DNA of 61,672 bases, the filler included, from Basidiobolus ranarum (taxonomy: Eukaryota), in assembly GCA_040143965.1 (NCBI GenBank). It is 15 parts of 15 records of this genome, joined end to end, with 100 filler letters (N's around TTAATTAATTAA, not from the genome) between each part and the next. Parts side by side here need not be neighbours in the genome. Positions count along the whole stretch, not along the records: positions 12,383 to 16,407 come from JASJQH010009028.1; 14 more parts are not named here. The stretch is one strand, 5' to 3'. The notes below the pieces were generated by a model. The model searched no databases, was not told the DNA's origin, and saw only the letters and a program-made list of their open reading frames with translations. Of the stretch, positions 1 to 61,672 are shown one piece after another; positions within the stretch are counted from its first letter, which is position 1, and every line of letters starts with the position of its first letter. The position numbers were made by a program, and so were the translations under genes.

Positions 1-300
1 GAGAAGACTATGGCTGATTTGGCATATGTTGGGGATGAATGCAGAAGGCTAGGATGTGTCACTGCTAACAAGAGGCCCAGAGGAGGGATACTCACAGAGA
101 GGCAAAAGCTTAATAATGACATTTTTTCCCATTTTATAGCAAGAGTAGAACATAGCTTTGGTTTCATAAAGAGATATAGCATTGTAGCAGGAAAGTATAG
201 AGGAAAATCATTTTGTGGGCCTTAATCAAAGTTAGGCAAAGTAGTCAAAATCCTGATTAATTCTTGATACATCCATACTCAAAGATATCCATTGAGAGCT
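1..300 (+). mobile_element. PIF/Harbinger-ISL2EU-like (DDE_Tnp_4) transposase C-terminal relic
   Basis: ADLAYVG...KRPRGGILTERQKLNNDIFSHFIARVEHSFGFIK fits the DDE_Tnp_4 pattern (D-x-x-Y...KP....LT..Q...N......R..VE..FG.LK). Confidence 0.75.
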
Positions 301-1636
301 CTGGACTTAAGACACTATGAATAAAGCTTTCTTCTTCTTTTGAATGTACAATAATGTCTAAAAGTACTTTTCTTACATATATCATATAAGTAAAATAAAC
401 TGTTTCCCAAACGGTAAAAAACATCATGCTGGATAGTGCCCAATCATGCCAATTTGTGCTGGCACACTTTTTAGCTGGCCTGATCTGGCTCAATAAAATG
501 GAACAAGTATAATAAATCAGCCAGCTTAGGATACAATACTCAAAGACAAATTCAAGATATTCACAAACTGAGTTTCCTAGTGAAATGGGCCTGGGAGTAT
601 TCCAGATAGGATGGAGCCAAGAGTAAAGATTTCCATATTGAATGGAGCCATACATAGAATGTTCCTTGGTGCTTGGCCTAAGAGTTGATAATAGTAAGTA
701 GTTGCTGAAAGTTGAGAAGTAAGAGCTGGGAAGATGCCTTTTGTTCCTTCCCAAGTAAGCATAAAAAGAATGTGAGTAGTATAGAAGAAGAGAGACAAGA
801 TGGGAATGGTGGGAGAGTAAAAAACACAATATCTATCCTTAATCCTGCACCTATTGATGAATACCCAGGAGGTGAAGTGAAACATAGCATCAGGGCATGG
901 GTTAGTGAAACCAGAGAGAGAGGTGAAAGATATGAATGTTCTGGTAAGGGTAATTATGAAAACAGGGGGTCTGGGCGACCTGGTCCTCCCAGTATAAAAA
1001 GAAAGCAGGGGGCTTGGGGATGGAATCCCTCAAGTACACCCTTCTGCCACAATATACTTAAGTTAATACTATATAAGAAAAATTGGGATTGCCTAAATCT
1101 TCCAAAGGTCAGATCTCTGACCTTGGACACATCTGAGACAGAAATAATTGATATTTTTTAATTTATTATTAATTTACCAGTCTCTGAAGAATTAAAGTGA
1201 AGATATTCTCCCTCATCTATAAGAGCTTTTAACCATTTTAATTTTATCATTGGTTGACTTGCTACCTTTTTAGCTTCATATTTTGCAATTTACTTATTAA
1301 GGATAATCTTTGTATACTTTTAAGAATAAAGAGAAAACTTGAGTGAAATTATGGATTTGTAACATTTGGAAGAACTTATGAAGAATACAATGTAGGTAAA
1401 GACAAAGTGAATATTGAAGATAACATATTTAAGTAACAATTATAGCAATATTGAAAGTGCTGATAAAAAGCTTTCTACTTGTAGTTGGTGACTCATGCTT
1501 TACAGATATTGATATATCACTAGCACTCAGCTGCATATATGTATGCTGATATACAAAATAGCAAAATAGCCACTAAAATTGATTTTTAGGTGGAAAAAGA
1601 TGTGTAATCACATTTAATTATGATTATATCGGATAC

Positions 1637-1780
1637 TGCTGAAGTTTATTGTCTTTATCATATTTGTTATCCCTATTTTTTTGCACCCAACAATCTCATA
1701 CATCACATATAAGTTAGTTAAGATTACTTAGGCAAATATCACTTAACTGCAAATGTGAACATATATTAGATATAGATACA
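1637..1780 (+). repeat. LTR-like repeat, family C (partial)
   Basis: Starts TGCTGAAGTTTATTGTC and is the reverse complement of 49445-49585, which ends ...AAACTTCAACA. Confidence 0.55.
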
Positions 1781-2099
1781 AATAATGTGAGAATTAGCAA
1801 TTCCATATTGGAAATTTTCAAGCTCATCCAAATTGCCCCAAAGATAGCTCATTTTACTCCTGCAGATGCTTGAAACACAACTCTTGTGTTAGCTTACTGT
1901 GTTTCCACCAAAATATGTAAATGCTTCATTTCTGGACAATAAATAATTATCTCAGAAAGCTATTCACAACTGCACATTTCTAAAGTTCCTACAAACAGCC
2001 CATATTTTCCCAATAGATACATATGGGTCTACAGTATGGAAAGAAAAGAAAAAGCTCTTTCTATCTTTAGAGATATTAAAACTCCTGAAGAGACTGAGA

Positions 2100-3484
2100 C
2101 TGGAACTAAAATCAAGTAAATAGGCACTGATACTGGTGGAGAATATATTTCAATGCAAATTAATAACTTTTGCAAAGTTCATGGAATTAAGCAAGTAACC
2201 ACTGCCCCCTATTCACCTCAACAAAATGGAGTTGCTGAGAAAGCTAATAGGACTATAACAGAAATGGCAAGATCTGTGATAAATGCACAAAATTAACTCC
2301 CAATTCTATGGCAGAATCTGTTGCTGTATCAGTATACCTCAAGAATAGAAGTTTGACTACAAGTCTGGCTAACTCTGTACTATATCAAGCTTGGTTTGGA
2401 GTTAAACCTGATGTAAAACATCACAAGATCTTTGGATGCTTTGCTTATGTCAAAAATATGAACAAAAATTGGTCTAGATCTGATCCAAAAAGTAATAAAT
2501 ACATATTTCTGAGTTAATGTATTCTAACTATGATCTACAAACTCTATGATACAAAAGATTCAGAGTTAGTCAAGGCCAGGCATGTTTTACTTGATGACAA
2601 TGCAAATTTTCCATTTATAATGATCTCAGATGATGATGAGAATGGATCTTCTCCCAATCCAATCATTCAAATTGACTTGTACAGGAACAACAAAGAAAAT
2701 AGCATTCCTATGGGCTTTTCAACCAAAATTCAGCCTATTGAAGTGCCAAATACAATGCCAGAGGCTGTAGTACCTTTATCTGAAACCATGAGATCAAATC
2801 AGATAGGAAATAGCCCTGATCACTATATCAATGAGTCTCAAAATTGGGCCTGTGCCTGCAAAGCTCACATATATGGGCCCCAGACTGTAAAAGAGGCCCT
2901 GAATGACCCTCATGCAAGATTTAGGAGATATGCAATGGCAGATGAGTGCCAGGCTTTGATTGAAAATAAATTTGGAGTTTAACCAACTTTCCTGAAGATT
3001 GAGAATCAATTAGCTGTGAATAGGTGTTTTGAGCTAAACCCAACTCTAATGGCATTATGTAAAGATTTAAGGCTCAATTGGTGGCCAAAGGGTATTTCAA
3101 ATGCCAAGAATAGATTATACTGTAACTTTTACTCCTGCAGCAAAGTATAGTTCAATTTGATTGCTTTTAGCAATTTCAGCCAAATATCAGTTGATAATAC
3201 ATCAAATGGATGTTGAAGCTGCTTTTGAGAATGGTGAGCTTGCTGAGGAGATCTATATGGACCAGCCAGATGGATTTGTGGATCCATAAAGTCCTAAAAA
3301 AGTTTTTGGACTCCAGAAAATGCTGTATGGCTTAAAACAATCTCCCAGAGCTTGGATTAGCAAGATGGATCCTTTTTGCCAAAATGCAAATTCCAAAAGA
3401 GTAATGCTAACTATGGTATCTACTTCAGGCCTGATAAAACAAACCTAGTTTTATTAGCCTTATGGTAAGATGATCCTACTATAT
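2100..3484 (+). mobile_element. Ty1/Copia retrotransposon relic (integrase to reverse transcriptase), degenerate
   Basis: Integrase TAPYSPQQNGVAEKANRTITEMARS and KIFGCFAYV; RT IHQMDVEAAF.NGELAEEIYMDQPDGF and LYGLKQSPRAW. Many stops and frameshifts. Confidence 0.92.
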
Positions 3485-4029
3485 CCCTAACAGAAGTTTG
3501 AGGATTGTTATCATAGGAAAACCATCACAATTTTAATCTATTTGGGATTGACCATTTACTTAGCATCATAAAATTGTCAAGTTAGATTTGATTTTAATCA
3601 ATTTTTTCAGTTTCAGGAGTGAAGTTTCAAGATCTCATGAAATAGTTGCATAGTATTGGCTACAATCTCACAGAACTATGGATCAACACATGTGTGAAAA
3701 ATGTAAATCAAATTTTACAAAATTACCACTTGAATGTCTACTTGTCACCTTTGAAATCCCTAGTCTCTTTGATATATTCTGCTGAATATTTTTATAGAGT
3801 TCTTCATACCCAAGGTTTAGCTCATACCCAACACAAGTTGGTGTCAATATCTCCATCAAAGCCCACCATTGTATTAATGTTGCTGAATCAACATTCTTCC
3901 AGATATCTGGTGGATACCCTGCAATATTGTGTCACTCTGTATTAAGTTCTTCCCAGATATCTGCACAGCAAACAGCAGACGGAATGTCAAGTGGAATGTT
4001 CTTCTTCTGAGGCCAATTTCTGCATACTT
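3485..4029 (-). mobile_element. Terminal segment of a DNA transposon (terminus CCCTAACAG) with a decayed ORF, inserted into the Copia RT
   Basis: The same segment occurs inverted at 49762-50227 (ending CTGTAAGGG) and about 36100-36408. The copies end at the same point. The minus frame reads ...DIWEELNTE*HNIAGYPPDIWKNVDSATLIQWWALMEIL... Confidence 0.65.
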
Positions 4030-4129
4030 NNNNNNNNNNNNNNNNNNNNNNNNNNNNNNNNNNNNNNNNNNNNTTAATTAATTAANNNNNNNNNNNNNNN
4101 NNNNNNNNNNNNNNNNNNNNNNNNNNNNN
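4030..4129. other. Artificial contig-joining linker (N44-TTAATTAATTAA-N44), first of 14
   Basis: Identical 100-bp spacers with stops in all six frames start at 4030, 8157, 12283, 16408, 20530, 24650, 28770, 32889, 37007, 41122, 45235, 49345, 53455 and 57564. Contig lengths fall steadily from 4029 to 4009 bp. Confidence 0.99.
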
Positions 4130-6738
4130 ATCTGAAAAGTGAAGGTTTCTTTGATAACATGTATGATCATGCATTTGCATTGGCTCTGGATGGTTTCTCA
4201 CTAAACAAATACACCATTGGAAAGGCTTGCTGGCCAATAATTTTGATCAACTTAAATCTTCCTCCTTCTGAATGGTATAAGAGTCATAATATTTTGATAC
4301 TATCCATCATATCTGGACCTAAATCACCAGGGCTTATAGATAGCTTCTTGGAGCCTTTGGTTGCGGAATTTCAATGGTTATCTAATGGTGTTCAAATGGG
4401 TGATCATTTTACAAAGGCATATTTCATTGTATGTATTGGTGACACTCCTGCCACCTATAAGCTTCAAGGTTTTTGCAGGCATGATGCACTATCTTGCTGT
4501 AGATTTTGTCAAATCAATGGAGTTTACACTATCAGGCATACACTTTACTACAATCAAAATACAACACTAAACTCCATGATTTTACAATCATGAGGATGAT
4601 CAGATTTCAGCATGATCACTAATATCAATTCATGAAATAGCCTGTATAACATCTAACTTGGTATTAGCCATAAGCCAAAGATTATATTGCTAAAGGGGAT
4701 CAGCTGGAGCCAGAGCTTCCCATTAGGCACTATGCACTTACTATTTAACAACATTGTAATACTATTTACTCAGCTATATAGCGGAAAGTTCAATAGGAAT
4801 GAGCCATTGAAGATAGGATCAAAGTTTGAATCAATTCCTTTCGAAAATGATTAAAAATGTCAAGATATACTCATATTTTACCAGGACTCTCATCAATATC
4901 CACTCATCTAGGTGTTTGTACAAATGCAAAGACTGGAGGTATTGGATTTGTGTATATTCAACTGGATTCTTGAAAAGATTTCTACCTGATAAGTATTGGC
5001 AACTTTGGGAGTTGCTTGTCAATATTATTTGTATATTCTGATGGCAACAACTCACATTGGCAGATCACAGGCAGATACAGTAGCTGTGCAAAGATTTTGT
5101 AATTGGAGATGAAAAACCTGATTACATGTAAGAAGAAGATAGACTGAATCAATGTAGGTATTCAATACATTCCCTGCTGCATCTTTCACAATGCTTAGAT
5201 ATTATACACCCTTGTTATACATTCTGGGAGTTCCCAATGGAGTGCATCTGTGGGTAATGATGCTCCATGTTAAATCCTCTATATTTCCATATGCTAATCT
5301 GATTAATGGTGTATCAGCAAAATCAGTGATGGATGTATTGTAATGGGTTAAGGAGATTTCTAGGTATATTAACCTTTCAACAATGAGCTTTTTCCAATGT
5401 GCTCATGGGTTCTCACATTGTTTGAGCACAATAACAGCAATAAAATGAAATTGATGGACACAGAGTACTACCTCTGTAATTTTGACCAATTTGTTTGTCT
5501 GATTATCTGACAGTATTTCTAAGAAAGCTGCAAAACACACTTCTGGGGGAGATAGATCAAGATACATAGTATTCACATTTTAGCTAAGGCTAATCTATTC
5601 AAGCAATGACACATCTCCTTGTGGCAAGACATTTGTTGACTGCAAGTTTGGGATATATTGGCTGAATTCTTTATCAAAATTTGCCCAAAATCCATGAGCT
5701 TATTCTCATTGTGAATGGTAACAAGTGTCACAATAAGGAACTGGAAAAGGACTGGAAACCACAACAAGAGGCTAGAAGGCAGGAGAGTACTTAGGTGTAG
5801 ATCATAAGATAAGACTGGACAAAGAAGATAGTTTGGCAAGAATCTTTATTGATAACTGACATTGTTCAGACTGAGATCTGATCAAGGAATACATGGGGCT
5901 TATATAGATATTGCAAGGTGAAACATAATATACTGAATAGGGAATATACTCTGGCAAGTTCAAGAGTCAGCATGTGGGGACTACAAGGACCAATACAAAG
6001 AGGGATGATGTAAAGATGATCAGGTGACCTTCCATGGAAGGTCTTGGCAGAAATACACCATATGTTGGATGACATGATTGTTCAGGTTTCATGGAATGTT
6101 CCAAAGAACATGACTTCCATATAAGGTAATCAGGATGAACCAGCACAAGATTGCCAAGAAGGGATGGCACAGCAGACAAGATGTCAAAATCTAATAATAG
6201 AAGAGTTCTGTTTGCAGTGGATCAGTATGCCAAGATTAGAATCATGACAACAAGAGTCAGATATTTGCTAAGTGTCAGTGCTATTCAAAATTTCAGATGT
6301 TTAGCAATTTTTTCACCATTAGTTTGCTGGTAAAGCATATTGATGTTTTTGAATTATGTGTGATAAGTCAAGTATGTGCATATGTAAAGACTAAGCACTA
6401 CAAGATTCTTGTATTTTTTGATTCTCATTATGGCTGGAATACAAAGCCAAAAATTTCTAAATAAAGACATGCATATTGATTTGAATTCCTACAGCAGTAA
6501 ACCTGGTAACTTGCCATTTGGAAATTATATTGTTACAAAAATTGCTGGAAATTATTAACACATGTCAAATATGAGGATCAATATTTTAACATATATGAAT
6601 ACCATCAAGAAACCATCATCACAAAATCAAAGTCCCTGTGAGAATGCAAGCCACTGATATTGTGATGGTTGTCTGATAGTTTTGTGATTTTGGAGAGTGG
6701 GTCCTATCCTGATTACTTTGATTTTATTTTTGTTAGGG
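4130..6738 (+). mobile_element. CACTA/EnSpm-type (Transposase_21/TnpD) DNA transposon relic with its 3' terminus ...TTTTGTTAGGG
   Basis: LALDGF...CWPIILINLNLPP..WYK.HNILILSIISGPKSP..IDSFLEPLV.E, IGDTPA..KL.GF..H.A...CRFC, and the downstream H.L.HL...GP...WEFPME motif. Homologous copies at 50240-51815, 59570-61500 and 35130-35584. Confidence 0.88.
5726..6249. mobile_element. Solo LTR (probably Gypsy-type) with a 5-bp target-site duplication, nested in the CACTA transposase
   Basis: Ends TGTCACAAT...ATCATGACA, flanked by ACAAG at 5721-5725 and 6250-6254. Removing it restores the transposase sequence seen uninterrupted at about 51000-51050 (minus strand). A partial copy lies at 49590-49761. Confidence 0.88.
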
Positions 6739-6852
6739 AATTGTGACTGTTTGCTTGCTACAACAATTAATAAATTTCCATCAGGGAGTCATATCCTGAT
6801 TTTAAGTTCACCATATGTACATAGTGTTCACTTCCTCTTTTAGAGGTGTTAT

Positions 6853-7200
6853 TGTTATAGTATTTGGGAGCCTGTTGGAAATAGTTGGGAGAATTTACAG
6901 ATATTGATGGCTCTCACTTATTGATATATTGAGTAGAAAGTTGATACTAGTAGCTTGGTGAAGATGTAAACAAACTAATAAGAGGAATGTTTTAAGGAAG
7001 GCTACATGAACATGCATGTAAAGTTTGGGGTTTAGAGCACAAGTTTAAAATATCTATATTTCTGAGAACTTCTAAGTTGGTAAAATATTTGAAGTAAATT
7101 CCTATTGAGAATAATGGATAAAATCTTAGTGAATTATAAGAAAACTAAGTAGTCAGCTATATATGTCTATATAGGTGCTTAGGTATTACTAATTTCCACA
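6853..7200 (-). repeat. Copia 3' LTR, family A
   Basis: On the minus strand it follows the RNaseH end and the PPT AGTTGAGAAAAAG, starts TGTGGAAATTAG and ends ...TATAACA. Homologues at 12027, 20371, 28251 and 28684. Confidence 0.85.
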
Positions 7201-8015
7201 CTTTTTCTCAACTAAATAGTTCTAAAAACTAATCCTAATTAACATCTAAATATCTCAAATTTCTGTCTGGCTATTGGTTTGGTGAATGTACTGGCAATAT
7301 GTCTTTGGCAGAACAATATGTCAAGTCTGTAAACATATTCCCTATAGTCTCTCAAATGAAGTGGTGTCTAATATCTATATGTTTGCTTCTATTATGAAAC
7401 ATGGGACTTTAGTTAATTTGATTCCACTTTGTTTATCTGAAAATAATGTAGTTGGTGAGTTTTGAGAAGGACCTAAATCTGTTACAAGTCTTCTTGACCA
7501 TATGCTTCTTTTTGTGTCTCACAGGCAGCCATGTTTTCTGCTTCTGCTGTCAAAAGTGCATTGGTAGGTTGTTTCTTTGATTTCCAGGAAATAGCTTCAT
7601 GATAGCAAATAAATAGATATTCTGTTGTAGATCTGCTTTCTTCAATATCTGTTCCCCAATTTGCTTCTAATTTCCAATCAGATTAAAGTTTGATCCACAA
7701 TATGTTTATCTCAAACACAGATGCACAGTACCTTTCAAATATCAGTAAATCTGCTTAACTGCCATGATTTGATCAGATTGGCAATTTTGAAAATATTAGC
7801 ACATAGCCCCCATGGAGTATTCAATATTCAGCCATTTTCCAACCATGGTGTACATCAAACTACCTACTATATATTGATATGAAAATTACTGGCTTTTATC
7901 TAAATCCAAAAACATCTAGTTTGAGCCATTTTTGGTAAAATCAAGATTTTACTCTATTGAAGTAGATACTGGATTACATTCTCTCATTTTGAACTTTTTT
8001 AGTATATTCAGGATA
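7201..8015 (-). mobile_element. Ty1/Copia RT-RNaseH relic
   Basis: Minus-strand motifs DIEESRSTTEY, ISWKSKKQPT.ALLTAEAE, DKQSGI.L and FH.RSKHIDIRHHFI. Confidence 0.9.
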
Positions 8016-8156
8016 TGATAAAAGTGTTTAGGGGATTTGGAAGTGTTTTGGACAAGATTTGGATTTGTGAATTGGACACTTAAGTTTTATTGAATTGAAT
8101 ATGTCCTATTTATAGTTTACTATGAAATAGGACTATTGGACGTGCTTAGATCATAA
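8016..8156 (-). repeat. Copia LTR family B, 3' part, nested in the family A element
   Basis: Reverse complement of 59420-59560; also matches 34919-35060. Confidence 0.85.
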
Positions 8157-9924
8157 NNNNNNNNNNNNNNNNNNNNNNNNNNNNNNNNNNNNNNNNNNNN
8201 TTAATTAATTAANNNNNNNNNNNNNNNNNNNNNNNNNNNNNNNNNNNNNNNNNNNNATAGATTGATTCCTAACCCACTGAAACACCACAATCAGTGAGCG
8301 ACCAAACACTCTGCAAGGGGTTTTAGATAGCATCCATTCTGGCCAAAATATCCGATTTGTTTTGATGGGATGATTCAGTCCTTTTCACCAGATCGACATC
8401 TGTGTAGATTATATGGTATCTGAGGGATTTCCGTCAAATCGGTTGTAGAGTGGATCGAACGATTCAAATATACACGCTGCTCTCAACCAATGTATTACAG
8501 CTCAATTCAGGTGCGCACAAGATTCGGATTCGGATTGGGATTGGGATTCGACGGCGGTGGCAATAGTGCTAGCGATAGTTTGGTTGGATGCTAGCAGAGC
8601 AGGAATGGTCACCAGATGTTGCTCATTTCATCGAACGTACTGGAGATCATTATTTAGATTGCAGCAGGCAGTTGGCTTACAGCCATCCCTCGATATCCAA
8701 CCGGCAATTTCCCCGCAGTGTATTGAAGAGCTTGTATTAGCCGCCCTGCTTGAATGTGACCATATGAAGTCTCTTGTTGTCCCTCGGAGTTACCAAACCT
8801 GATTGAGGGGATATCTAGCTTCGACTAGAGGGGTGGAAGAGTTGCGGATGCGAGTCAACGCCCGAACCTATCCGCGTAACGACGAGGCTTCAGTGCACCG
8901 GGAAGGGTCGACACCGCGCCAGCCAGAACTATGCCACCCTCACCAGCACATCCCAAATTCTCTCGAGATACAAGCATTCGGATATCTTTCGGAACACACG
9001 GGTTAGGGGGCGATGATTCCCTGGGAGTGATAAGGTCTTGCAATATTCTATTAAGAGTGAAATGGATTCACGAAACCGACCGTCCAAATAGGAAGTGGGA
9101 TTCTTAATGGACCGATGCGAACACCCTTTGGACCATGTGAAGATATGGCAAAGGGAGTTTCGAATTAAGTGAATCATTTGGAAGGCATATAAATTGATGA
9201 CTTCGGATGCAATTGGCTCGAATCGAACCTCGACCCCAGTCACCCATTGGCAGGGTTTGACATGCTACGGAGTCTAGAACCAGCTTGGACTTCTGATACT
9301 CTGTTAGGCTTTCGTATGGAATTAGGCCCATTTGAGCAGGATTCCGAAGGAGATCGTAGTTACTCAACGCCATATATATTCTGCTTGGTTGGGATGCGCC
9401 AACCGGGTGAAATAACCACATGTACGATGAAATTAGAGTTGAGCCTTTCAGGGTTCACATAGGCGATCTTTGGATTTCCCATATATAGATTAGGAATCAT
9501 TTGAAAGTCAGTGGTTTCAGAAGCAACACCATCTTTTGGGCCTCGCAATGTGCTATCCTGTGTCTGTTGACGAATACGTGGCACCATTCTTGGGTGGATG
9601 TCTGTCTGTCGCGACTGTTTGCTCTCGCCTCCAGGTATTAGATAGCCCCTGCATGGCCAGATCCACCGGTTGATTATGTGGAGAGAGACTGGACAGGGGG
9701 TGGGCTTGGTTTAAGGTAAAGTTTGAATGCTGTGAGCGGAATCTTATCCTGGGTTGAGATCGTGTGTGGTGATCGTATGTGATGATCGCCAAGTAAGGAA
9801 CCTTAGACCTAAGCCCGTACAAAAGAAGCGAGCATCTCAGAGAGACTGTAACTCGGGTTTCTAGCATGAGAGCGAGCCACACATTTCCCAGCTAAGAAGG
9901 GAAGCTTGTTTGGGGCTCGACTCA

Positions 9925-9970
9925 CACGGCACCGCACCGCACCACACTGCACCAAACCACACCGCCACAC
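9925..9970 (+). repeat. Degenerate pentamer microsatellite (CACCG/CACCA)n
   Basis: cacggcaccgcaccgcaccacactgcaccaaaccacaccgccacac. Confidence 0.7.
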
Positions 9971-12026
9971 TAATATGCTATTGACTCTCAGACGGATCCA
10001 TTGATAGGCTAATCCAAAAATCAGAAGCTCGATCTCCTAAACAGTATCTGTTGCGATCGATATCTGTCCGCTGCTCGTTCTGCAGAATTCCAAATCCCCG
10101 TTCAACTACATTTCGACCTTGAATGATACTAAATTGGCGGGATTCACCTAACCAGCGGTTCAGTGGATTGGCTATTCTGCTTCCCCGTATCTGGGTAATC
10201 ATATGACTCGGAAGTCAGCCAAGCCTCATACTACAAGGGTCAAGTAGAATAAGTGTGGTAAGATTAGGATGGATACAGGTAAGCAGTCAGCCAATACAAA
10301 TTCAAGTATTAAGCTTGGTGTTTGAAATAGCCTGCGGTCTGTGAAGTCCCTTCTCTTTACCTCTTGACTTACCTGGGTCAGGGTAGCTTTCTTCCCCGCC
10401 GTTGCTATTTCAATACGCCCACTGTGGGATCTTTCGCAAGTGCAGTATCTCTTGATCACGTGGCGCTCTCCTCGGGTCGGATAAATTCCAATTGAGCCCC
10501 TAATCTGATCAGAATTCAATAGAGGAAATGATACCGGTAAGTACAGAAACATATGTGACTCCATAGCAAATTAGATTGCAAGGGATTATCAATCAATGGT
10601 TAGGGTTAAAGGAGACCGCACGAATGGGTACATCCCGAGGGATTTACCTAGATCCTTAACTGAACCGTCACCTATCAACATAGAAATCTAGCTGGAAATG
10701 ACAGAATCCAATTCAAGAAGTGGTCTTGTTCATTGACAGATCTGATCGTATTGTCATACATATCCAGATGTATCGTATCCCTATATAGACCTAGTGGGTA
10801 CATTGTTGATGTGGTTGGGTTGGACAATCTTATCATTCTATCAATCTCTCCTAATGGGGAATTAAGCTGCTATCTATAGACACATCCATACACTTCCAAA
10901 CCTGAAATCCCCCCGCTTGGTACTCAACGTCTACATATGAGTTGAGGTGAACTAGTACCATTGTTATAGTTACCCAATCGGTCCATTGAAAGGGTAGTTT
11001 GATATACCCTATAGCAAGCCAATAATAAGACATATCACGGATACACTCAAATATAAATCATTCGAATGAAACATCACCTACGATAAAGATTAGTAAAAAT
11101 GAATCTTTTTCAAAATGGAATTCCATTGATTTTTCTTTTGGATTGATCTACTTTAGCAAACCATTTTGGTTGGTTTTTAACCAGTGTGAAGTGGTCTATT
11201 TTTGCATCAAATTTGGGATTTTGCTCTGATGTGTTATGTATTGAAAATTCTAGTCATTGAACTAATTCTATTTGGTTATATATAGGCATGAATAAGTAGT
11301 AGGTGTATATGTTTGTCAATGAAATATTATTTAATGCTACTCGTAAGATGAGATTATCTCCATGAATCCATAGCAGCAAGTAGTAAGTGGTAATCATCCC
11401 ACAGAATCTATTATCTATTTAACCTAGCAGTTTGCGATATATCATACTAGATAAAACAATCTGAATGGAATCTACTTTACAATAGTTTTTATGCATAATT
11501 TCACTCGGAATGAAAAATTCAAGATTTTCAATCTAGATTCAAGAGGTCAACATTAGTTCATGATTTTTAGAATTTCATACTCACCACTCATATTCAATAT
11601 TAGTAATTGGTAAAATGGAATATATATATAGCATAGAATATTCTAATGCTAAATTCAATATGTAGGGCTGAGTCTACTCTTTTCAATCAATACTACTTAC
11701 AGCAGCTTATCCGTTGATTAAAGTGAACTACTCATATGAATGGGATTTGTGTACAGCTTGATGTTCTTCACACTGTTTACTATTCAGTGCCTTTTAAGTA
11801 TGATATGTCACAATCATTCATGATGCAACGCACTTCAATATCCAAGTATTCAAACTCAGAAAATTTCGTGGAATTAAACTAACAAATAATTCCTTGTCCC
11901 ATTTATTCCTACTTTCCCAATGATTGTCAGAGCATGCCAGTATAACAGAGTGAGATGAAGTGGATTCAGCTACAAGAACACCATTATGCCATGTATTTGA
12001 AAATACATCCACATCTGGAGAGTAAG

Positions 12027-12282
12027 TGTTGAAATTGGCATCGCATAAACACCTATATAGTTATATATTGCTCAGTATTTAGTTATCCGATATTGAACTA
12101 AGATATCACCTAATATTCTCAATCGAAACTGAGAATATTTTTACCAACTTAGAAGTTGTCAGATATATAGATTTTTCAAACTTGTGCTAGAAGCTGTAAA
12201 CTTTGCACACATGCTCCTGGGACCTTCCTCAACATATTCTACACGTTAGTTTGTTTACATCTTGACAAAAGTATAAATGTCA
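12027..12282 (+). repeat. Copia LTR family A (cut by contig end)
   Basis: Starts TGTTGAAATTGGCATCGC and aligns with 28251-28450 and the reverse complement of 6853-7200. Confidence 0.85.
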
Positions 12283-12382
12283 NNNNNNNNNNNNNNNNNN
12301 NNNNNNNNNNNNNNNNNNNNNNNNNNTTAATTAATTAANNNNNNNNNNNNNNNNNNNNNNNNNNNNNNNNNNNNNNNNNNNN

Positions 12383-13115
12383 TGAGTCTTTTGCGAATCA
12401 ATAATCTGTCAAATATGAGCCAAAAAGATTATGGATCATATTCAAACCGGTTGAAGAGAGAAATTCTTTAGGTATATCTTCAATATTTCTTGACGAAATA
12501 GCCAGCTTGACCTTCTTTAAATGCTCTGTTATTGTCTTTATAGCTGCCATAATCTCTTTCTCGCTTCCCTCGTTCTTCTTCATTTCGCTTTCCAGCGCTT
12601 TAATTCTTTCGTTCTTCCTTAAGAGCAAGTTAAGAAGCATTCTAACTTTGTTTCCGAATTGAAGGTTTACCTCGTTCAGATAACCAGTAACAATTTTTGC
12701 TACTTCACAAGAAGCTATCTGATGGACATACTTCATGTTGAACTGGTTCGTAAGAACAGAACTGAAAGTACTTAACCTGATACTTGAGTATTAGATCTTT
12801 TTAAACTCTTGATTCTGTGGAAACTTTCTTTTTGTCTGGCTTGTAGTTATTGAGGAGTGACAAAAGGACTTGTTTAAAAATACCAACATTAATGAAATCT
12901 TCCAAAGGAAACGCAGGATTATGTTCCAGTTTATGAGTAAAGATGTACTTCAAAAAGGAAAACATATGTGACACAAGGGTATGAACACTAGCTACAAGTA
13001 ACATGAGTAGTGAAACGTATTGTGGCTTCCACCCAATACCAGCGATTGAGCTTTTGACTGCTATAATCTTAGAGGTGGTTCTGTAAAGAGAAAAAGAGAA
13101 AGGGCGAATTGACAT
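12383..13115 (-). pseudogene. Fanzor1 (eukaryotic TnpB homologue) N-terminal half, disrupted and cut by the contig end
   Basis: Joined reading: AVKSSIAGIGWKPQY...VHTLVSHMFSFLKYIF..L...P.F.LEDFIN...FKQVLLSL...*KDLILKY..KY.QFCSYEP/NMKYVHQIASCEVAKIVTGYLNEVNLQFGNKVRMLLNLL...VKLAIS...SYLTDY*FAKDS. This is colinear with fungal (Mucorales-type) Fanzor1 N-termini as I recall them (VKTTI..W..., THTFAF.KYIF, AQQIALYE..KIQTAY.NNI..HFGNRLR, DY.F.K.SI.YD). Stops at 12801-12803 and 12398-12400, and a 1-nt frameshift near 12740. Confidence 0.8.
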
Positions 13116-16100
13116 CTTTTTTAGTTTACGGATAGAACAGTTTGTTAAGCATATACTCTCAAAGAAAACTGATGATTTACAGCAATGAAATTACACAATT
13201 TGTCTACAATTTTTCTGCCATGCATCTCAGATTTTTAGATACAAAAACTTGTCTGTCAATGCTCTCTGCAGCATGCTTAAAACACCCTAAGCCTAGCTAC
13301 TCCATTAGGCCTGGTGTAGGATGAACATAGTCAAATAGGTGTACTCGATTGAACGATCACTTAACCTTCAGTTTAACATGGTGCAGTGGTTGAACGGCAT
13401 ATATGGCTTAACAGAACACCACCTACAATGCTGACCTAGTTAATCCGACTCATCTGCTTATGGCTTATGCTGTGGTTGGAAGTTTCATGGTTCCATCGAA
13501 CCATAAATACGCAAAAGATGACTCCAAAAATACTTGAATCATTTCCCCATCATTAACAAGGAATTTAACCCAATTTTCGGATTTGTTGCAATAATTCCTA
13601 AGTGTTGAGATGACCTTCTATTTATCCCAAGCACTGCATATGGCCATTCCTGAATTAACTTTACAGTCATTGTACATGCTAGCGTGTGACATTGAGAAAT
13701 CCCAATGAAAACCAAAGTAGAGAGTAGACTTACTTGGATTCACATGTATACATCGAGCATACGGTGAATCGTCCAGATTACGCAACAATTGCCGCAGAAT
13801 ATCAAACAAATCGGTTTCTGAGCTCGTGACGCCTTCCTAATCTGAGTAGTTGCTGACGAGGTATGTTCCCGTCAGCAAAATCACACCTAACTAGTGTCTT
13901 AACTAGGCCTAAAAACCAATTGATTGCTTAATCCAGTATCAATGGTAGAGAATCGAAACATGTGGGCAAACTGGATGAAATCAGGGACCTTAGGGAGTAC
14001 AGAAAGAATAGAAAAATGATTGTGCTTACCCTGTTGAGTGTGGAACAAGTAACGTTGTTGAAGAGGACGCGGACGCGGATAGCACAAAGGAATGGTCCAG
14101 TCCTGTGTCCAATGATGAGAATCATGAGAGACAGGCAACTGGCGAGCGTAATCACTTCACTCTACCAACAATGCTCTATCTCGCAAGTGCAGTGGGATTT
14201 TTAATATGGTCCTTTGGAGATATTGATACTATTGTAGAGAGCAGTGCTTAGTAGTACAAATACTAATTCAGAAATTCCAGTATTGTTTTGAAGCAAAGCC
14301 CATTTTCAGCTGCAGCTGGAAAAGTCATTTGTTGTAATATGTCGGTCAATAGGCAAGCGATCTATTTGGTCACCACATACATCTAGAATCAAGCCAATGA
14401 ATACCCGATTCACTAAATATTACGAATCTCGTAAAACTCCCATTCATCTAAATGAATCAAAGTGCGAAATCATCTGCAGAGGTGGGAAAAAGCTGCTATT
14501 TAGGGACCAATTCTAGGTTCATATGATAGATCACCCTGATATAAGCTGCTGCCCCTCTATCATATGGTTGCAATGCAGGTATCGCCTAATTATTTGCACC
14601 ATTAACTGTTTGTGATGTTCTTTCTCGAGAATACCTTGATGATGAGTGTCATCAACGTGAGAACAAACAGAATGCTAATCCGATCTATATATGTTGGATT
14701 CTTTAAACGAGGTAAAAGATGACCCAGTCTAGCTGTTCGATGAGAGACAAAAGGTGAACTCACCCTCATATCTCTTCGTGTTATCTTTTTTGTCTAGATT
14801 TTACCTGATACTCACCTGCCAATCCTCTACGTATATTCCACAATTGATTTCGAAATAGAGGGGACAATAACTGGTAGCTGTACTGGTTTAGGAGGACTTA
14901 CAAAACGCTGTGAATAGTCATTGGTTTTTCTGGAGTCGCACATTTTCAAAGTGCACTGCAGGTAAAGATTGGATATCCTTTCTGACTAAAAGCCTCTGTA
15001 CATCCACCATAGCCTGTATACATCATACTTGGCTTCATTCTACTGCATGATACTTGATAACTCTATATCTGGAAAGGGAACTCATTGACATGCTTCCGCT
15101 CTCTTCAACAGAAAAAAGAAGCTCTACATGAGAAAGACCGAGGTTGTATATATGACTCGCATGTGAACTCAATCAGTTTATCTTGCAGATAGGTCACTTG
15201 AAGCCCCAATGAAGGAAAGTCCACCAACAATGACAACGAGTACTTGCAGCGTGTGAAACGCAGTATATACATAACTGACCGGGCAGGGCTTGTCTTGATC
15301 CCAGTAGCTTCGGATTTGTCGGTGAATCTAATCATAATCTCAGCTGATTACAAAATTAGCTAGCTTCTTTGAAATAGTGGGAAGAGTCACAATATCCCTA
15401 AATATCATGTACCTCCATGTGTACCGCCATACTTGCATAGAAATTAAACAAAATGAGTGTGATAAGTGAAATTACTGGAACACCACCTCTACGATCCAGA
15501 ATTCGCCTCGTGCTAAGTAACATCTCTGGAACAGCGTTTATATCTTGGCCCGATATCGAGCTGTAGCTCCTTTTTGTACCTTGATATGAAACAAAGATCT
15601 CTCAGATGTTTCAGCAGAATAAGGCAACCGAAGATCAAATACTTGAAAAGCATGACTTTCTGGGTTATGCCACTGCTATTCCTCGTCAGGCATGAAGTCG
15701 AACTGTATTGGCACCCAACTCAAATATACAGTGATTGGGAAATCCGAGCCACGCCATTGCTGTAGACTACTCGTAACAACCCCGACATATTTTGGGGTGA
15801 CGGAAATTACATGTAATGGATGGGAAAGTTTGCTAGGTTGGACTGAAGCACACCAATTAGATCACAGACACCATTTGAATGCTTCTGCAATCTCCATTTA
15901 ATTGGTGAGGCGTATATTTTAGAAGTAGGGACAACCTTGGGCTTGTTATAAAAGGATCCTCCACCGTTGGGTGATGTATGAGCTCCTCTTGATGATGAAC
16001 CATTGAAGCCGAGCTGGCCATTACTCAGAGTTTCTCTTGATCCAACCAACATCCCAATATTCATTGCTTTCCACCGTCTGGGTCGTCGCATTCACAAAAC

Positions 16101-16173
16101 CTCCTAGTTGATCCTGAATTAATCTACTTTATAAACACACACTCATCACCACACAACTGGACTCTCTAGCGCC

Positions 16174-16407
16174 ATGTCTCCCTCAAGTATATTAGAGGAT
16201 CAGTCCAAGTCCCCCGATTTTTATAGTTTCTCTACTCCAGTTTCTCGATGTGCCTCCCCCTTCTCTGACGAGGAGGAGGGTGACGAGACGTGCTCCGATC
16301 AAGGCTGTGCATCCCCCAATGAAAAATCCATGTTCTTGAATTTCACCTCGGACCTCAACCCTCAAAATTCCATAAAAAAGCAGAAGAACAAGAAGTCCTC
16401 CACATAC
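16174..16407 (+). CDS. 5' end of a gene cut by the contig end (acidic/Ser-rich N-terminus, possibly a transcription factor)
   Basis: ATG in GCCATG context, TATAAA at about 16130, and the frame is open to the contig end. Confidence 0.6.
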
Positions 16408-18290: not shown

Positions 18291-19085
18291 CTATATTTCG
18301 GGGTTTAGTATCTTGGATCTAACGGCAATCTCAACAAAGTTGGCCACAGTTGGTCCTAAGAGGGCTTCGTCGGGTCTTTTAAAGTCTTTTGGCAGTCGCT
18401 CATGAGCAAATACATCCATCACCGCTTCTTTGGAGACCTTTCTGTCTTTACCAAAGACATCCACGAATATACCCATTTCGAATTGTATGATGGCCTTTAG
18501 TCTGGGAGTATAAGTAACATTGGGATTGTTTTTCAAACTGTGTAGGATGCGCTTATTACTTAGTCTGGCAAAATCCTCCAACGTAAATGTATTCCCATCA
18601 CTCGCAGAATTCTCCAGTTGTCGAAGCAGCTCTGGGTCAGCATTTACCGGATCCCCTAGGTTAGTATCTTTACGTGATAGTGAAAAATCGTGCTCTATTA
18701 AGTTATGAACTCTCAGGTCTTGGAGACTTGGTATAACCATGCTTGAGTCTGTATATTCGCCTATATGACTATAAAATACTGCCACTAACACATCGCGAGG
18801 AAGAGGGTGCACATTTAATGAATCTTCCAAGCCCTGTCGTAATTGATAAATGGTAATATTCCTCCCAGAGCGTGGAAGGTAGCCATGGTTAGATAGTGTA
18901 TTCAAGACAGGACATGGCCCCCGAATGGCATTCCTCGGCTTTTCCCAGTGGTGATCCTCTATTGCTAGTCCATCTTCGAGATCTAGAGTAGCCGATACCA
19001 GCTGACCTGACAAGCAAATAAGTAATAAGCAAGCAAGGGAAAAACTCAGGCGATGTACGAGTAATTCTTTAAGCGTGTACCACAT
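18291..19085 (-). CDS. Heme-thiolate peroxidase / short unspecific peroxygenase (Peroxidase_2 family), intronless, probably secreted
   Basis: RGPCPVLNTLSNHGYLPRSG (PCP heme ligand), IEHDFSLSRKD (EHD-S-S) and a hydrophobic N-terminal segment. First ATG at 19085. Confidence 0.92.
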   Translation of the reverse strand: MWYTLKELLVHRLSFSLACLLLICLSGQLVSATLDLEDGLAIEDHHWEKPRNAIRGPCPVLNTLSNHGYLPRSGRNITIYQLRQGLEDSLNVHPLPRDVLVAVFYSHIGEYTDSSMVIPSLQDLRVHNLIEHDFSLSRKDTNLGDPVNADPELLRQLENSASDGNTFTLEDFARLSNKRILHSLKNNPNVTYTPRLKAIIQFEMGIFVDVFGKDRKVSKEAVMDVFAHERLPKDFKRPDEALLGPTVANFVEIAVRSKILNPEI

Positions 19086-20370
19086 GACGGAGGCAAGTAA
19101 CAATCAATGGAAGACTCTTTTGCCGACCTGAGTTGTGATCACCTCTACCTTAGTTTATAGTTATATATCCATTGTTTCAATTCCATTTCCTCTATTGCTT
19201 TGTTTCGGATACTTCTTCAGATCCATCAAACTATGTTTCCACATTAGACAGGTCAGATACCATTCCTTCGTAACTAGTTTCAGCTTAAAGGTTGGAATCC
19301 CTGCATATAACACAGTTCTACTCTGAATCGCGATCCTCAATGAGGATTATCTATATGGGTAGTGGATGGATTAATTGAGCTTCACCGTACTAAATGAATC
19401 AACAATGTATTTGGTTTTATGCTTTAATCAGGCATTGTTGTCATACTCACCAACGGATCCTAGAATACTTTGTTTGGCCTTTGTCGGATTGATCAAGGTC
19501 CGTACAGATATGTACAAACCCTCCTTAAATCATCCATTCTACTACCTTCTGCAATTGTAAGCTATCTCTTAAGTCACTGCCATTAGACAGATCTCCATGC
19601 TGATGGCTATTTGGCCATCTTGCTCAATTCTTGGATTGATTTTGGTTATTTAAACTGCATCAATGTACTGGCTATCTAAAGCTCACAAGGCCATTGTTTT
19701 ACAGCTTCCTTTGGTGGCATATCTCTATTTCACCTTTCACTGCCTTCTTATTAATCAGATAGTAGCCCATTTAATTAGAGTCTAATCAGAATTGGGTTTA
19801 TCGCTGAAGATCAAACACAGACCAATGTACAAATAATCTCGTTGCAAACAATCGAGATTTGTTTCACGATTACATGATATTTGAGATAAACTGAAGCAAC
19901 ATGCAGTGTGTATTTATTGTTCTGTTGAATTGAAGACTAATATATTGATATTCCGTATTGCAAATGAAATGATAAGATGCATGATTGTGGTTCTGGAATG
20001 TGAAAGAAGCTGGGGAAAGTGTTTGGTAAGTTTCCGAGCAGGTTTGAAGGTTTTGGTTTGATTCCAAATTTCAGAGATTTTGCCATGACCATGCTTATTC
20101 TTACGATCAAACAAATAGTCTAGGCATGATATCAGTTAAAACATTGGAATTGTATACCTGACTATTCATAGAGCATATTTGGTAAAAACCACACTGCTTA
20201 CTTGAGTATCTCATAAGCCAAAACCATAATATACATTTTGTATATCTCCAAAACCATGAGAACTGACCAGGCTTGCTGAAACATCAGAGCTAGCTACCTA
20301 AATATTCATATAGCACATATTTCTTCCAACCATATTGAACATTTTCTATTTCATCCCAAATACTTGAAAA

Positions 20371-24649: not shown

Positions 24650-24809
24650 NNNNNNNNNNNNNNNNNNNNNNNNNNNNNNNNNNNNNNNNNNNNTTAATTA
24701 ATTAANNNNNNNNNNNNNNNNNNNNNNNNNNNNNNNNNNNNNNNNNNNNTGCCTGGGTTTGTTAATGAAATCCTTTTTAACGTACTAACCATTGTTTCTT
24801 TCTCAAAAG

Positions 24810-25408
24810 GAACCGACCACATAATCACCATGGACTTACACGATCCCCAATTCCAAGGATATTTTGATATCCCAGTCGATATGATTAGCGCCGAGTCTTC
24901 CATCCTTGACTACATTAAATCTCAGATACCCAACTATCGTGATGCTGTTATTGTCTCTCCGGATGCTGGTGGCGCCAAGAGAGCTACTTCAGTTGCTAAC
25001 CAACTTAATCTCGATCTAGCTCTCATTCACAAGGAAGGAAAGACTAACGAGATATCTCGAATGTCCTTAGTTGGCGATGTTCAAGGAAAGCCAGTTATAA
25101 TCATCGATGATATTGCTGATACATGTGGAACTCTCGGCCTTGCCACGGAGCTGCTCCACCAAAGAGGTGCTACGGAAATTTATGCAGTGGTTGCCCACGG
25201 TATCCTCTCTGGAAAAGCCATCGAGATCATTAACAAGTCTCCAATGAGTCAAGTGGTCGTCACTAATACTGTTCCTCACGAAGAGAAAAAAGCTGGATGT
25301 AGCAAACTTCGTACCATCGATGTATCTGGACCATTCGCAGAAGCCATCCGAAGAATCCACAACGGTGAAACGCTAGCACCCCTTTTCAAAAAGAAACCAT
25401 ATGTCTAA
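24810..25408 (+). CDS. Ribose-phosphate pyrophosphokinase (PRPP synthetase), last exon
   Basis: Branch site TACTAAC at 24783 and acceptor AG at 24809. Motifs ITMDLHDPQFQGYFDIPVD, VSPDAGGAKRA and IIDDIADTCGTL (PRPP-binding loop). Confidence 0.95.
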
Positions 25409-32988: not shown

Positions 32989-35130
32989 ATCCATATAGGG
33001 CTTCAAATGGAGTAGAATTTTGAAGCAATCTTGTTGGGCTTCTGTATTTTATATTTTGCAGTAGAGACAGATTCAGCGGAATATTGATAATCTCACTTTA
33101 AATCATGTAACATTGATGATGCTATCTCCACTATGGTCAAATTAGCACATTCTGCAACTCCCATTTGCTGTCAAGAACAAGGTACAGTAGTGTGTTACTT
33201 AATTACATATTTAGAACAAAAACTAATAAAGTCTTTAGAGAGGCATTCTCCACCGTTATTACTCATTGGGACCCTTATTTTTTGTGCTGGTTGTTTCTCT
33301 ACCATTGCTTTGTAGGGCCTGAATGTAGTCAAGACTTCATATTTTGATTTGAGAAAGAATACCCAAGTATATCTTGTTTTGCATCAAAAATGGTGCTAAA
33401 GACCATTTCCAACCTAGTGAGATGTTTTCCATGGGCCCAAATAGATCAGAATGAATCAGGGCAAAAATCTGAGTAGATATTATCTCTCCAAAGCCTGAAA
33501 ACAGCTTGCTGTGATGTTTTCCAAATATGCAACCTTAACACATATACAATTTAGTGATATTTTCAATTGGTTAGCCTGAAACAAGCTGATTTTAGATTAT
33601 TTAGGTCAGCTTTTGTTCCTCAATTTGGCCTATACTTCTATGCCACATTTGACAGCTTATTTTACCGGTTTTGGCCAAGCTTGCATGCAACAAATCCAAT
33701 TTGTTGATTTCTAGCTTGTCTAAGTTTTGGGTTTTGATCCTAGTAGCTGATTTGATATCATTTTGATCTGTGATAGTGCATCCAGCCTTACTGAACACAA
33801 AATTTAGTCCTTGAGCTGTTGCCTGGCTTACAGAGAGTTGATTCTTGGCTACACTTGGTACATCAAGTACTTCTTCTAGTTTGGCAAATGTTGTAGCCGA
33901 TCTTTAGTCTAAATTGAGCACAAATGTGCCCTTACCAACTGCATCTAGTGCATAGTAATTATCTAAGTGGACTTTCTGTGTTTGGATTGGTCTTAAGTTA
34001 GAAAACCAGTCTTTGTGGTTTGACATATGCTGGGAAGCTCCTGAAGCAATGTAGCCTGTTTCTGTGTATTCTTTGGTGGTTACTGATAGGGCAGACATAC
34101 ATACAAAATCCTTATCAGTGCCTACTTCTTTTGCTTGTTCTGATTTTAGCTTTTGGCAAAAATCCTTTTTCTGCAATCTTCAATAATACGGCTTGGTTTC
34201 TTGCAATGCTTGCAGATGATTGATTTCCTGTTAGGGGCACTATTATAGAAGCCTGTTGGGCATTTTACAGCTCCAAAAAATGCCTGTTGTGCATTATTTT
34301 ACTAAGAATTAGATCTCCTTGTTTCTTCATTTCAAATCCTAGTACCAATATATTCCATTCTTAATGGCTCTGATCTTGATTCTAGGCAATTATGAGGTTC
34401 CCAAACTTGTTGGGCAGGCTCCCAAGTAGCATCATGACTAAGTCATCTTCATTTAGAGGTGCCTCAATGGATGAGAGATGATCAGCCATAGTTTTTCCCT
34501 AATTTATATGTTGAAGCATAGAATCAGCAGAACTCATCTGAATTGAGAATAATATTTGCCAAGATATAGCCTATTAGCCAGACTTTCAGTCACATATAGT
34601 CCCTCAAGTGTTTCCAAGGCATATTTGATGTTTTTGGCAGACTTTATGTGCCTCATTTGAGAATTTCTGACATGAAGACAAAGTGTAGAGAGTGCTTTCA
34701 TTGGCTTCTTGTGAAAGGCAATGATGGCATCTGGTGGTCCCTCTGGCTCTATTTCTTCTCCTGTAACAAATCCCCAAAGGCCCTTGTCTTCTAGCACCAT
34801 TTGCATCTTTAACTACCAGAGGTGAAAGTTATCACTATTAAAATGGTCTGTAGATGCAAAAATGTTGATGCTAGTACTAGTAGACTTTCCGTTACCAGCT
34901 AGCTTGGGGCTCACAAATAGATAAAGTGTTTAGGGGAGTTGGAGGTGTTTAGGACAAGATTTGGATTTGTGTATTGAACACTTAAGTTTTATTGAATTGA
35001 ATAAGTACTATTTGTAGTTTACTATGAGATAAGACTATTGGACATTCTTAGATCATACCAAACATGCCTGTTAAGCATGGGTCAAATTTGAAGTGATTTG
35101 GAGAAGGCTTGAGAACAAAGTGATTCAAAA
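32989..35130 (-). mobile_element. Ty1/Copia 5' part: LTR-B, PBS, gag, protease, integrase (degenerate)
   Basis: LTR-B at 34919-35130, PBS-like TGTGAGCCCCAAG, gag NFHLW..KMQMVLEDKGLWGFV, Zn knuckle, protease ASGASQHMS, WHRSIG, and integrase HSDLFGP. Confidence 0.9.
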
Positions 35131-35584
35131 TTTCAGATGTTTTGGAATTTTTCCACCATTAATTTCCAGGTAAAGCATATTGATATTGTTGAGTTATGTC
35201 TTCAAAGTCAAGTATGTAAGTATAGAGATTAAACACAACAAGTTTCTTGTATTTTTTGCCTCTCATTATGGCTGACATACAAAGCCTAAAATATCCAAAC
35301 AAAGGCCTGTATATCAATCAGAATTCCTATGGCAGTAATCCCAATAATTTTCCATGTAAAAATTAGATTTTTACAAAAATTACCAGGAATTATATGATGC
35401 ATGCCAAATATGGGGAGCAATAGTTTAACATGTATGAATACCATCAAAATATCGTTAACAAGCTGTTGTCTTACCATCAAAATACCTGGCAGAATGCAAG
35501 CCACCAATAATGTGACAGTCTCTGATGGACTTGCAATAAGGGTGGATCCAATCCAGATCAAATTGATTTCAACTTTTGTTTGGG
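35130..35584 (+). mobile_element. CACTA transposon 3' terminal segment
   Basis: Homologous to 6285-6738 and ends ...TTTTGTTTGGG. Confidence 0.7.
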
Positions 35585-36753
35585 AATTATAATGGAAAAT
35601 TAAGTTGAATGTAGTAATGAATTGTGTGTGAGCATAAGTGAATGCTGCAGAGTTGCTATCTAGGCTGTGACATGCAAGAATGCTACAATATTGCAAGTAA
35701 TATAGCATTCCAAAGCATCTAGGCATCAGTTAGATGGTCACTACACAACAAATACAAGACCTTCTAAAAAACATAAGAGCCATTGAGTGTGGCCCAACTG
35801 TCCTGCTTACCAACTTCTTCTTTCCACTGCAAAGACCTGCATTTCCTGAGTTGAATATGGAAGCTGGTATATTGTTGATTTGGCTCAATTTTACCATATA
35901 GCCAAGAATACCAATTTTAAGAGTTCAGAAGTTGGAAGTTTATCAAGCACCAGGTATCTCTCAACAAGCTATAATCCCAACAATGAAACTCACAGCTTTC
36001 AAACCTTGCCTTTTACTTTTCAAAGTGTTGATATTGACCACAAATTTAAAGGCAAATGAAAAAGCTATCTATGCACAACAAAGCAGTAATAATTACTTGT
36101 AACAAAGTTGAGGATAATGTATTGATGAAGCTAGGAATTTCAAAGGTGACAAACTAGCTTTCAAGTGTTGAAAGTGTAAAATTTGGGTTATGTCTATCAC
36201 ACATCTGTTGATCCATAGTTTTCTGATATTGAAGCCAGTTATGTTCAGCCATTTGGCAAAATTCATAGATATCACTCCCAATATTAAAAAAATTGATTAA
36301 AATCAAATCTGACTTGATGATTTTGTCATGGCAAGTAACTAACCAATCCCAAATGGATGAAATTGTGATGGAGTTCTTGTGATAACAATCCTGGAATTTT
36401 GATTAGGCATTAAAAATAGCCTTAACCACTATATCATTGAGTCTCAAACTGGGCCTATGCTTACACAGCTCAAGCAGCTGTGCCCCAGACTATAAAAGAG
36501 GCACTAAATATCCCTCACAAGAAAGTTAGGAGAAATACCATGGCTAATGTGCACTAAACTTTGATTGTTATACAAACTTTATTGTAATGAGCTCACCAGA
36601 TAAAGAAAATTGAATGGATACAAATTGGTGTTTAAAGGTTTACTACAGGTCTGCTGGCACAGCAGAATAGCACCCTACCACAAACTCTAGGATTGTTGTA
36701 GTATGAAAACCACAACAATTTAAATCCATTTTAGATTGACCATCTATTAACCA

Positions 36754-37006
36754 TCATAATAGTGTCATGAATAAAACTTTCTCCTGGCTTGAAACCTGAT
36801 TTGCTTGTTTTGACTTCTCATTTTTGTTGTAATATCTTGATTTGCAATCTTTTAACTGGTGTCTGGGTTTGTTACAACCATAGTATAAACCTGGTTTCCT
36901 TCTTCTGTAACCTCTGTACTTGCCAAAGCTATGTTTTCCAGCTCCAAAAAGAGCCACTTCCTCAGATTCTTTCTCCAAATTCTTACTTCTGAGGTGTTGA
37001 TCAATT
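36754..37006 (-). mobile_element. Copia gag zinc-knuckle relic
   Basis: YYGCNKPRHQLKDC is a decayed CX2CX4HX4C knuckle in a CpG-free context. Confidence 0.6.
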
Positions 37007-45234: not shown

Positions 45235-45334
45235 NNNNNNNNNNNNNNNNNNNNNNNNNNNNNNNNNNNNNNNNNNNNTTAATTAATTAANNNNNNNNNN
45301 NNNNNNNNNNNNNNNNNNNNNNNNNNNNNNNNNN

Positions 45335-59560: not shown

Positions 59561-59569
59561 ATGGTGGTA

Positions 59570-61500: not shown

Positions 61501-61672
61501 GTCTTCACAGTTGTCTGGACTTACTGGTTTGACCAAGGATGTGCTTCCACCTACATCATTCTGGTCATATCACTGTGGTAACTCCACAGTTTCTTGACTT
61601 TTTGCAGTGCTACTACAACTTTGAGGCAAAGCACAGCCAGTGGACTAAGTGGGCAAAATAAAGTGGAAATGT

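Follow-up and report, generated by a model that had tools for sequence, protein, structure and literature searches.

The Fanzor1 fragment and its setting

The left end of a contig from Basidiobolus ranarum (positions 12383-16407 of the window, i.e. of the whole 61,672-base stretch of DNA analysed) carries two short reading frames, ORF A and ORF B, which occupy different frames of the minus strand and very probably are the remains of a single Fanzor1 gene (Table 1). The homologous stretch comprises a 5' leader of ~40 nt and codons 1 to ~234, and is cut off by the contig edge at 12383. The window itself consists of 15 contigs of 4,009-4,029 nt each, sorted from the largest to the smallest and separated by identical 100-base linkers composed of N44, TTAATTAATTAA, and N44 (e.g. 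4030-4129, 8157-8256, and 12283-12382). Since the contigs are joined by linkers, neighbouring stretches have no physical link, and the DNA at 8257-12282 is unrelated to the fragment.

Table 1. Positions of the Fanzor1 fragment, its reading frames and its lesions, counted along the window. L001 is the Rhizopus arrhizus-like reference contig; PpFz1 is the Fanzor1 protein of Parasitella parasitica.
Feature	Position	Strand	Match or evidence
Artificial linker N44-TTAATTAATTAA-N44	12283-12382	none	contig edge cutting the Fanzor1 gene
Fanzor1-homologous stretch	12383-13123	-	matches L001 2184-2921
ORF A, 104 aa, N-terminal piece with premature TAA end	12801-13115	-	PpFz1 9cf0_P 513-589, E 2.7e-7
ORF B, 112 aa, putative helical REC-lobe piece with premature TGA end	12398-12736	-	PpFz1 9cf0_P 622-735, E 1.5e-15
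Ancestral start codon site, ACA here, ATG in L001	13082-13084	-	nucleotide alignment
1-nt deletion in an A run, ancestral codon 5/6	13070/13071	-	alignment to L001
Premature TAA, TAC in L001, Tyr in all aligned relatives	12801-12803	-	alignment
1-nt insertion (coding-strand C), frame shift ...SYEPV / NMKY...	12740	-	alignment to L001
Premature TGA, CGA in L001, Arg in relatives, CpG-to-TpG transition	12398-12400	-	alignment

A first-pass annotation of this DNA had read the segments 13115-12801 and 12736-12398 as one gene joined via a stop codon and a 1-nt frameshift, and all of these coordinates and lesions are indeed present. Its translation through the TGA at 12398-12400 (DY*FAKDS) up to the contig edge could be reproduced as well and reaches the last base, 12383. 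It had further described the remnant as the N-terminal half of the gene, which is too generous: the full-length size of ~690-730 aa (L001 gene, P0012, and P0141), compared with ~234 codons here, makes it the N-terminal third. That RuvC would be out of view was correctly anticipated, the gene being cut at 12383. The window shows no RuvC domain, no zinc finger, no omegaRNA, and no ends of a transposon, and the Fanzor1 membership is read from the N-terminal region alone; past the contig end one would expect RuvC, the TNB domain with its zinc finger, and the region of the omegaRNA.

No further Fanzor pieces were detected elsewhere in the window by tblastn, neither with nine relatives (10 HSPs) nor with 152 more (179 HSPs). 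As every HSP lies within 12383-13200, the missing part of the gene is on none of the other 14 contigs. Upstream of the gene, homology to L001 ends ~36-40 nt 5' of the ancestral ATG (at ~13123 in the window and 2184 in L001), and this may be where the element common to both copies begins on its 5' side. A search for terminal inverted repeats in contig 12383-16407 and in L001 yielded only short AT-rich chance pairs. No ORF in the remainder of the contig (13124-16407) exceeds 106 aa, and none of ten flanking ORFs from it gave a significant Pfam hit. One had a weak match to RabGAP-TBC (E 0.019), and an Atlas search with it yielded nothing usable. Rfam returned no match on the whole contig 12383-16407.

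Assignment to Fanzor1

Fanzor1 proteins are eukaryotic TnpB-like, omegaRNA-guided RuvC endonucleases located on DNA transposons (PMC11423790; PMC3627910). The signature that defines Fanzor proteins is described as D...[TS][TS]xx-C4 zinc finger...RD (Bao and Jurka, 2013; PMC3627910). When the ORFs were searched by sequence against every solved structure, both matched PpFz1 (9cf0) in collinear order, and all other hits had E values above 1. Searching the window with the relatives by tblastn gave E values from 1e-49 to 6e-51, far beyond chance. The assignment to a Mucorales-type Fanzor1, already made in the first-pass annotation, is upheld by these matches, as both ORFs fall on PpFz1 in the right order with no unrelated family competing. 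The same annotation had raised the concern that the best full-length homologues might be devoid of a C-terminal RuvC/TnpB domain. This is not the case, since the relatives P0012 and P0002 match PpFz1 through the RuvC motifs. P0012 (713 aa) aligns with PpFz1 at E 9.5e-158, with SpuFz1 (8gkh) at 7e-50, and with GtFz1 at 4e-4, and P0002 (577 aa) with PpFz1 at E 1.6e-140 and with SpuFz1 at 3e-50. The alignments of both proteins span the blocks DPGRRD, DEF(K/R)TSS-C-P-x-C, and RLWNRD; in the nearest full-length relatives the RuvC triad is represented by DPGRRD, DEF, and NRD, and the zinc finger together with the RD motif reads TSSLCPSC...C...NRD in P0002 and P0012.

There is consequently little doubt about the nature of 12383-13123 on the minus strand: it represents the 5' third of a Fanzor1 copy that is dead and belongs to the Rhizopus arrhizus/delemar subfamily, with PpFz1 as a more distant relative. 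The structural study of PpFz1 (PMC11423790) uses R448 as the marker of the WED-RuvC loop and describes the REC lobe (WED/REC) as clamping both the TAM duplex and the heteroduplex. Judged by its position in the PpFz1 chain, well upstream of the WED-RuvC loop, the surviving part would represent only the N-terminal REC-lobe region (WED/REC).

Domain databases contribute little to the assignment. On ORFs A and B, Pfam reported no family above threshold, and the sub-threshold entries (CdiI_2 with E 0.017-0.033, RNase_H2-Ydr279, HAD_2, and Catalase-rel) were dismissed as chance noise. A Pfam scan of relatives likewise found a family in none of six. The protein database itself assigns PF26935.1, a model evidently absent from the Pfam copy scanned, to eight of the nine relatives from one search and to all seven from another.

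Relatives and the reference locus

Of 191 candidates from a protein-database search with ORF B, nine reached E <= 1e-3 (identity 52-78%), including B. ranarum P0001 (247 aa, 71% identity) and seven proteins from Rhizopus arrhizus / R. delemar (52-78%). A second search, seeded with P0001, added seven longer relatives of up to 742 aa among 665 candidates. By tblastn, ORF A is 75.7% identical to residues 6-114 of P0001, and ORF B is 75% identical to residues 1-118 of R. arrhizus P0002. Because P0001 covers both window ORFs in a single open frame, ORF A and ORF B are parts of one gene. The closest Rhizopus and B. ranarum proteins, 70-78% identical, are unannotated. A further fragment from B. ranarum, P0147, is 85% identical to P0001.

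Lesions and divergence were read against L001, a Rhizopus arrhizus-like metagenome contig that is a single locus from a metagenome search with a five-row alignment, and whose protein is 99.6-100% identical to R. arrhizus P0002. It harbors the closest complete gene (2220-4361), whose RuvC half is interrupted once, at 4039-4088, by a GT...AG intron of 50 nt. Aligning the window fragment to L001 required no spliceosomal intron. The L001 gene is not intact either: a T run at ~2423 has gained one nucleotide, and on account of this frameshift the Rhizopus proteins in the database (P0002 etc.) begin with MKY..., 113 residues into the protein. The 3' flank of L001 folds modestly better than shuffled sequences (z -2.2), which is too weak for an omegaRNA call. 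Upstream of the gene, L001 carries a tyrosine-recombinase-like ORF at 1-906, whose match to Phage_integrase (E 6e-4) stays below the Pfam cut-off.

Lesions and decay of the window copy

Alignment to L001 revealed five lesions within 234 codons, two of which, the lost ATG and the 1-nt deletion, go beyond those in the first-pass annotation. The column of the lost ATG is where the MEPPLK start of P0001, P0010, and P0011 aligns. The ATG at 13115 is, judging from the alignment, a fortuitous upstream start: it falls in frame because of the deletion at 13070/13071. An uninterrupted frame with a start codon is not present, and with its ATG gone, two 1-nt indels, a TAA, and a TGA the copy is unable to make a working protein; five lesions in so short a stretch identify it as a pseudogene.

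Identity to L001 is 82.5% over 744 nt by blastn, and 612 of 736 aligned bases are identical by MAFFT. Within 231 codons, the differences are distributed over codon positions 1/2/3 as 28/30/57 (dN 0.127, dS 0.473, dN/dS 0.27), and 86 transitions and 29 transversions separate the two copies. A dN/dS of 0.27 indicates that most of the divergence from the Rhizopus copy accrued under purifying selection and that the death of the copy came later; the fragment would, on these sequence data, descend from a once-active element. The CpG sites furnish mild evidence for CpG decay in the window copy: of the 24 sites in L001, nine are kept and 12 appear as TpG, CpA, or TpA in the window copy, while five of the 15 sites of the window copy are changed to TpG, CpA, or TpA in L001.

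Decay is common in the Fanzor1 family. P0001 is matched by 236 representative clusters at E <= 1e-3, by 104 at <= 1e-10, and by 12 at <= 1e-30, and many of the 236 are short fragments.

Closeness to Rhizopus and origin of the element

Basidiobolus belongs to the Basidiobolomycota and Rhizopus to the Mucoromycota. The fragment is nevertheless 75-76% identical to the Rhizopus copies in protein and 83% in DNA, with an unsaturated dS of ~0.47. Over the region of the fragment, other Mucorales Fanzor1 families reach 36-60% identity (R. microsporus P0013, 36%; P0146, 60%; Gilbertella P0158, 55%; Mucor flavus P0175, 52%). A maximum-likelihood tree of ten rows with P0013 as the root makes the window copy the sister of B. 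ranarum P0001, its nearest relative (78% identity; support 96/97). This pair stands beside the Rhizopus-like copy in a five-row clade, at a weakly supported fork (81/93). The terminal branches of the two Basidiobolus copies measure 0.13 and 0.15, compared with 0.079 for the Rhizopus copy.

Uricase, a housekeeping enzyme encoded in the window, provides a scale for these values. Two uricases from B. ranarum share 91% and 90% identity with the ORF at 47629-48645 (minus strand), those from B. meristosporus 86-87%, and those from Rhizopus only 50-52%, which makes a Basidiobolus species the most likely source of the window DNA. The unsaturated dS and the DNA identity of the Fanzor1 copies, set against 50-52% protein identity for uricase, lead to a transfer reading. 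The simplest reading, rated as moderately probable, is a horizontal passage of a Fanzor1 transposon between Basidiobolus and the Rhizopus lineage of Mucorales, after which the element multiplied and decayed in Basidiobolus. As a sequence of events, an active Fanzor1 element would have crossed between the two lineages and spread within Basidiobolus, and the window copy would then have died and decayed in place. A direction from Mucorales to Basidiobolus is suggested by the organism-named relatives, all of which apart from B. ranarum are Mucorales; it is no more than a suggestion, as names are available for only four of the ten top representatives (three Mucorales, one Basidiobolus).

The main alternative to horizontal transfer is contamination of both Basidiobolus assemblies by Mucorales, in which case the contig would stem from a contaminating Mucorales fungus and the fragment would be the remnant of a vertically inherited Mucorales Fanzor1. 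It is prompted by the organism-named relatives, which besides B. ranarum are all Mucorales (Rhizopus, Gilbertella, Mucor, and Parasitella), and by the contig itself, which has no repeat in common with the other 14 contigs and bears no host marker gene; with no recognisable host gene next to the fragment, its attribution to Basidiobolus is indirect. Composition (GC 0.40 and CpG observed/expected 0.60, vs 0.37 and 0.76 in L001) is not discriminating, although both values lie inside the range of the gene-bearing contigs (0.37-0.415 and 0.58-0.96). What makes contamination unlikely is that the subfamily recurs in an independent B. ranarum assembly, in a minimum of two fragments (P0001 and P0147), the former being both the nearest relative and the tree sister of the window copy.

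Two other explanations concern the state of the gene and not its origin. The lesions could be sequencing or assembly errors in a gene that is intact in the organism, given that the 4-kb contig is unplaced and of low quality, one among many leftover pieces of ~4 kb; the deletion sits in an A run, both indels could be artefacts, and L001 likewise shows a homopolymer frameshift. Three of the five lesions, however, are substitutions (ATG to ACA, TAC to TAA, and CGA to TGA), and the insertion at 12740 lies outside a homopolymer. Longer terminal branches than that of the Rhizopus copy and the loss of half of the L001 CpG sites to TpG, CpA, or TpA fit decay, so that an intact gene is regarded as very improbable. 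Least credible of all is a fragment that still functions as a domesticated or regulatory remnant, be it a truncated REC-domain protein or an RNA. The upstream ATG does restore a 104-aa ORF, and dN/dS relative to the Rhizopus copy is below one; yet this ORF stops at a nonsense codon within a conserved block, and the low ratio is explained by the functional past that both lineages share. Rfam, moreover, gave no RNA family, and short fragments are also numerous among the relatives in the protein library.

Comparison with known systems

The Rhizopus arrhizus/delemar copies (P0002-P0007, P0009, and L001, listed as 'hypothetical protein' or 'Transposase') show the same order of blocks as the fragment and share the MEPPLK... 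start region with the window gene. They differ from it in the phylum of their host and in their lesions: the five described above are private to the window copy, and that of L001 (~2423) is not among them.

PpFz1 (9cf0-9cf3) is matched collinearly N-terminal of the WED-RuvC loop, with moderate identity. It possesses ~125 extra N-terminal residues, and the nearest full-length relatives skip ~100 residues of its chain (993-1090), which would correspond to the FRI insertion region named in the structural study (PMC11423790). PpFz1 was solved together with a 75-nt omegaRNA (Xu et al., 2024; PMC11423790). A further difference is that the window holds a dead, truncated copy. SpuFz1 of Spizellomyces punctatus (8gkh) and the bacterial TnpB proteins (OMEGA nucleases) belong to the same superfamily, but the N-terminal pieces of the fragment do not reach either of them at E <= 10. 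High variability has been described for the N-terminal regions of both protein groups, Fanzor and TnpB (PMC3627910).

The dead fragment itself yields no nuclease, guide RNA, or TAM for study, and the biochemistry and structure of the family have already been solved. Fanzor is reportedly a programmable nuclease (the work of Saito et al. in 2023). In Mucorales, Fanzor1 families have been recorded since 2013, with four in R. oryzae, ten in Mucor circinelloides, and three in Phycomyces, some of them residing in MuDr-like elements (Bao and Jurka, 2013; PMC3627910). The family as such is therefore known, and what is possibly new is Basidiobolus as a host lineage. A text search of a library of papers found none joining Fanzor and Basidiobolus; supplementary lists may include it. 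The fragment extends the recorded host range of the PpFz1/Rhizopus-type Fanzor1 to Basidiobolus, and its unexpected closeness to Rhizopus in DNA offers a testable case of a transposon transfer across phyla in fungi of soil and gut. If true, such a transfer would bear on the spread of Fanzor elements among eukaryotes.

Other contents of the window

Several of the other contigs carry pieces of fungal genes, namely a family-2 (heme-thiolate) peroxidase (18291-19103, minus strand), a PRPP synthetase (24698-25408, plus strand), an MFS sugar transporter (45436-46089, minus strand), and a UDP-glycosyltransferase (54553-55437, minus strand). Many further Basidiobolus paralogues are 59-87% identical to the uricase at 47629-48645, which makes uricase a multi-copy family in the genus.

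Five contigs (1-4029, 4130-8156, 32989-37006, 49445-53454, and 57664-61672) have repeat families in common, with 70-91% identity. Their CpG observed/expected ratio is 0.02-0.08, compared with 0.58-0.96 in the other ten, and the near-absence of CpG looks like methylation-driven or RIP-like decay restricted to repeats.

On the plus strand at 42859-45282, an 807-aa open frame (AT skew +0.20) runs off its contig end. It was considered and set aside as unrelated to Fanzor1, being low-complexity, rich in Ser, Arg, Lys, and Asp, and without a Pfam family. Intronless NRPS genes of Basidiobolus are attributed to transfer from bacteria. An uninterrupted NRPS frame of 1,372 aa, open at both ends, extends across the entire contig at 37054-41169 (minus strand) and comprises Condensation, AMP-binding, and PP-binding domains as well as a second Condensation stretch.
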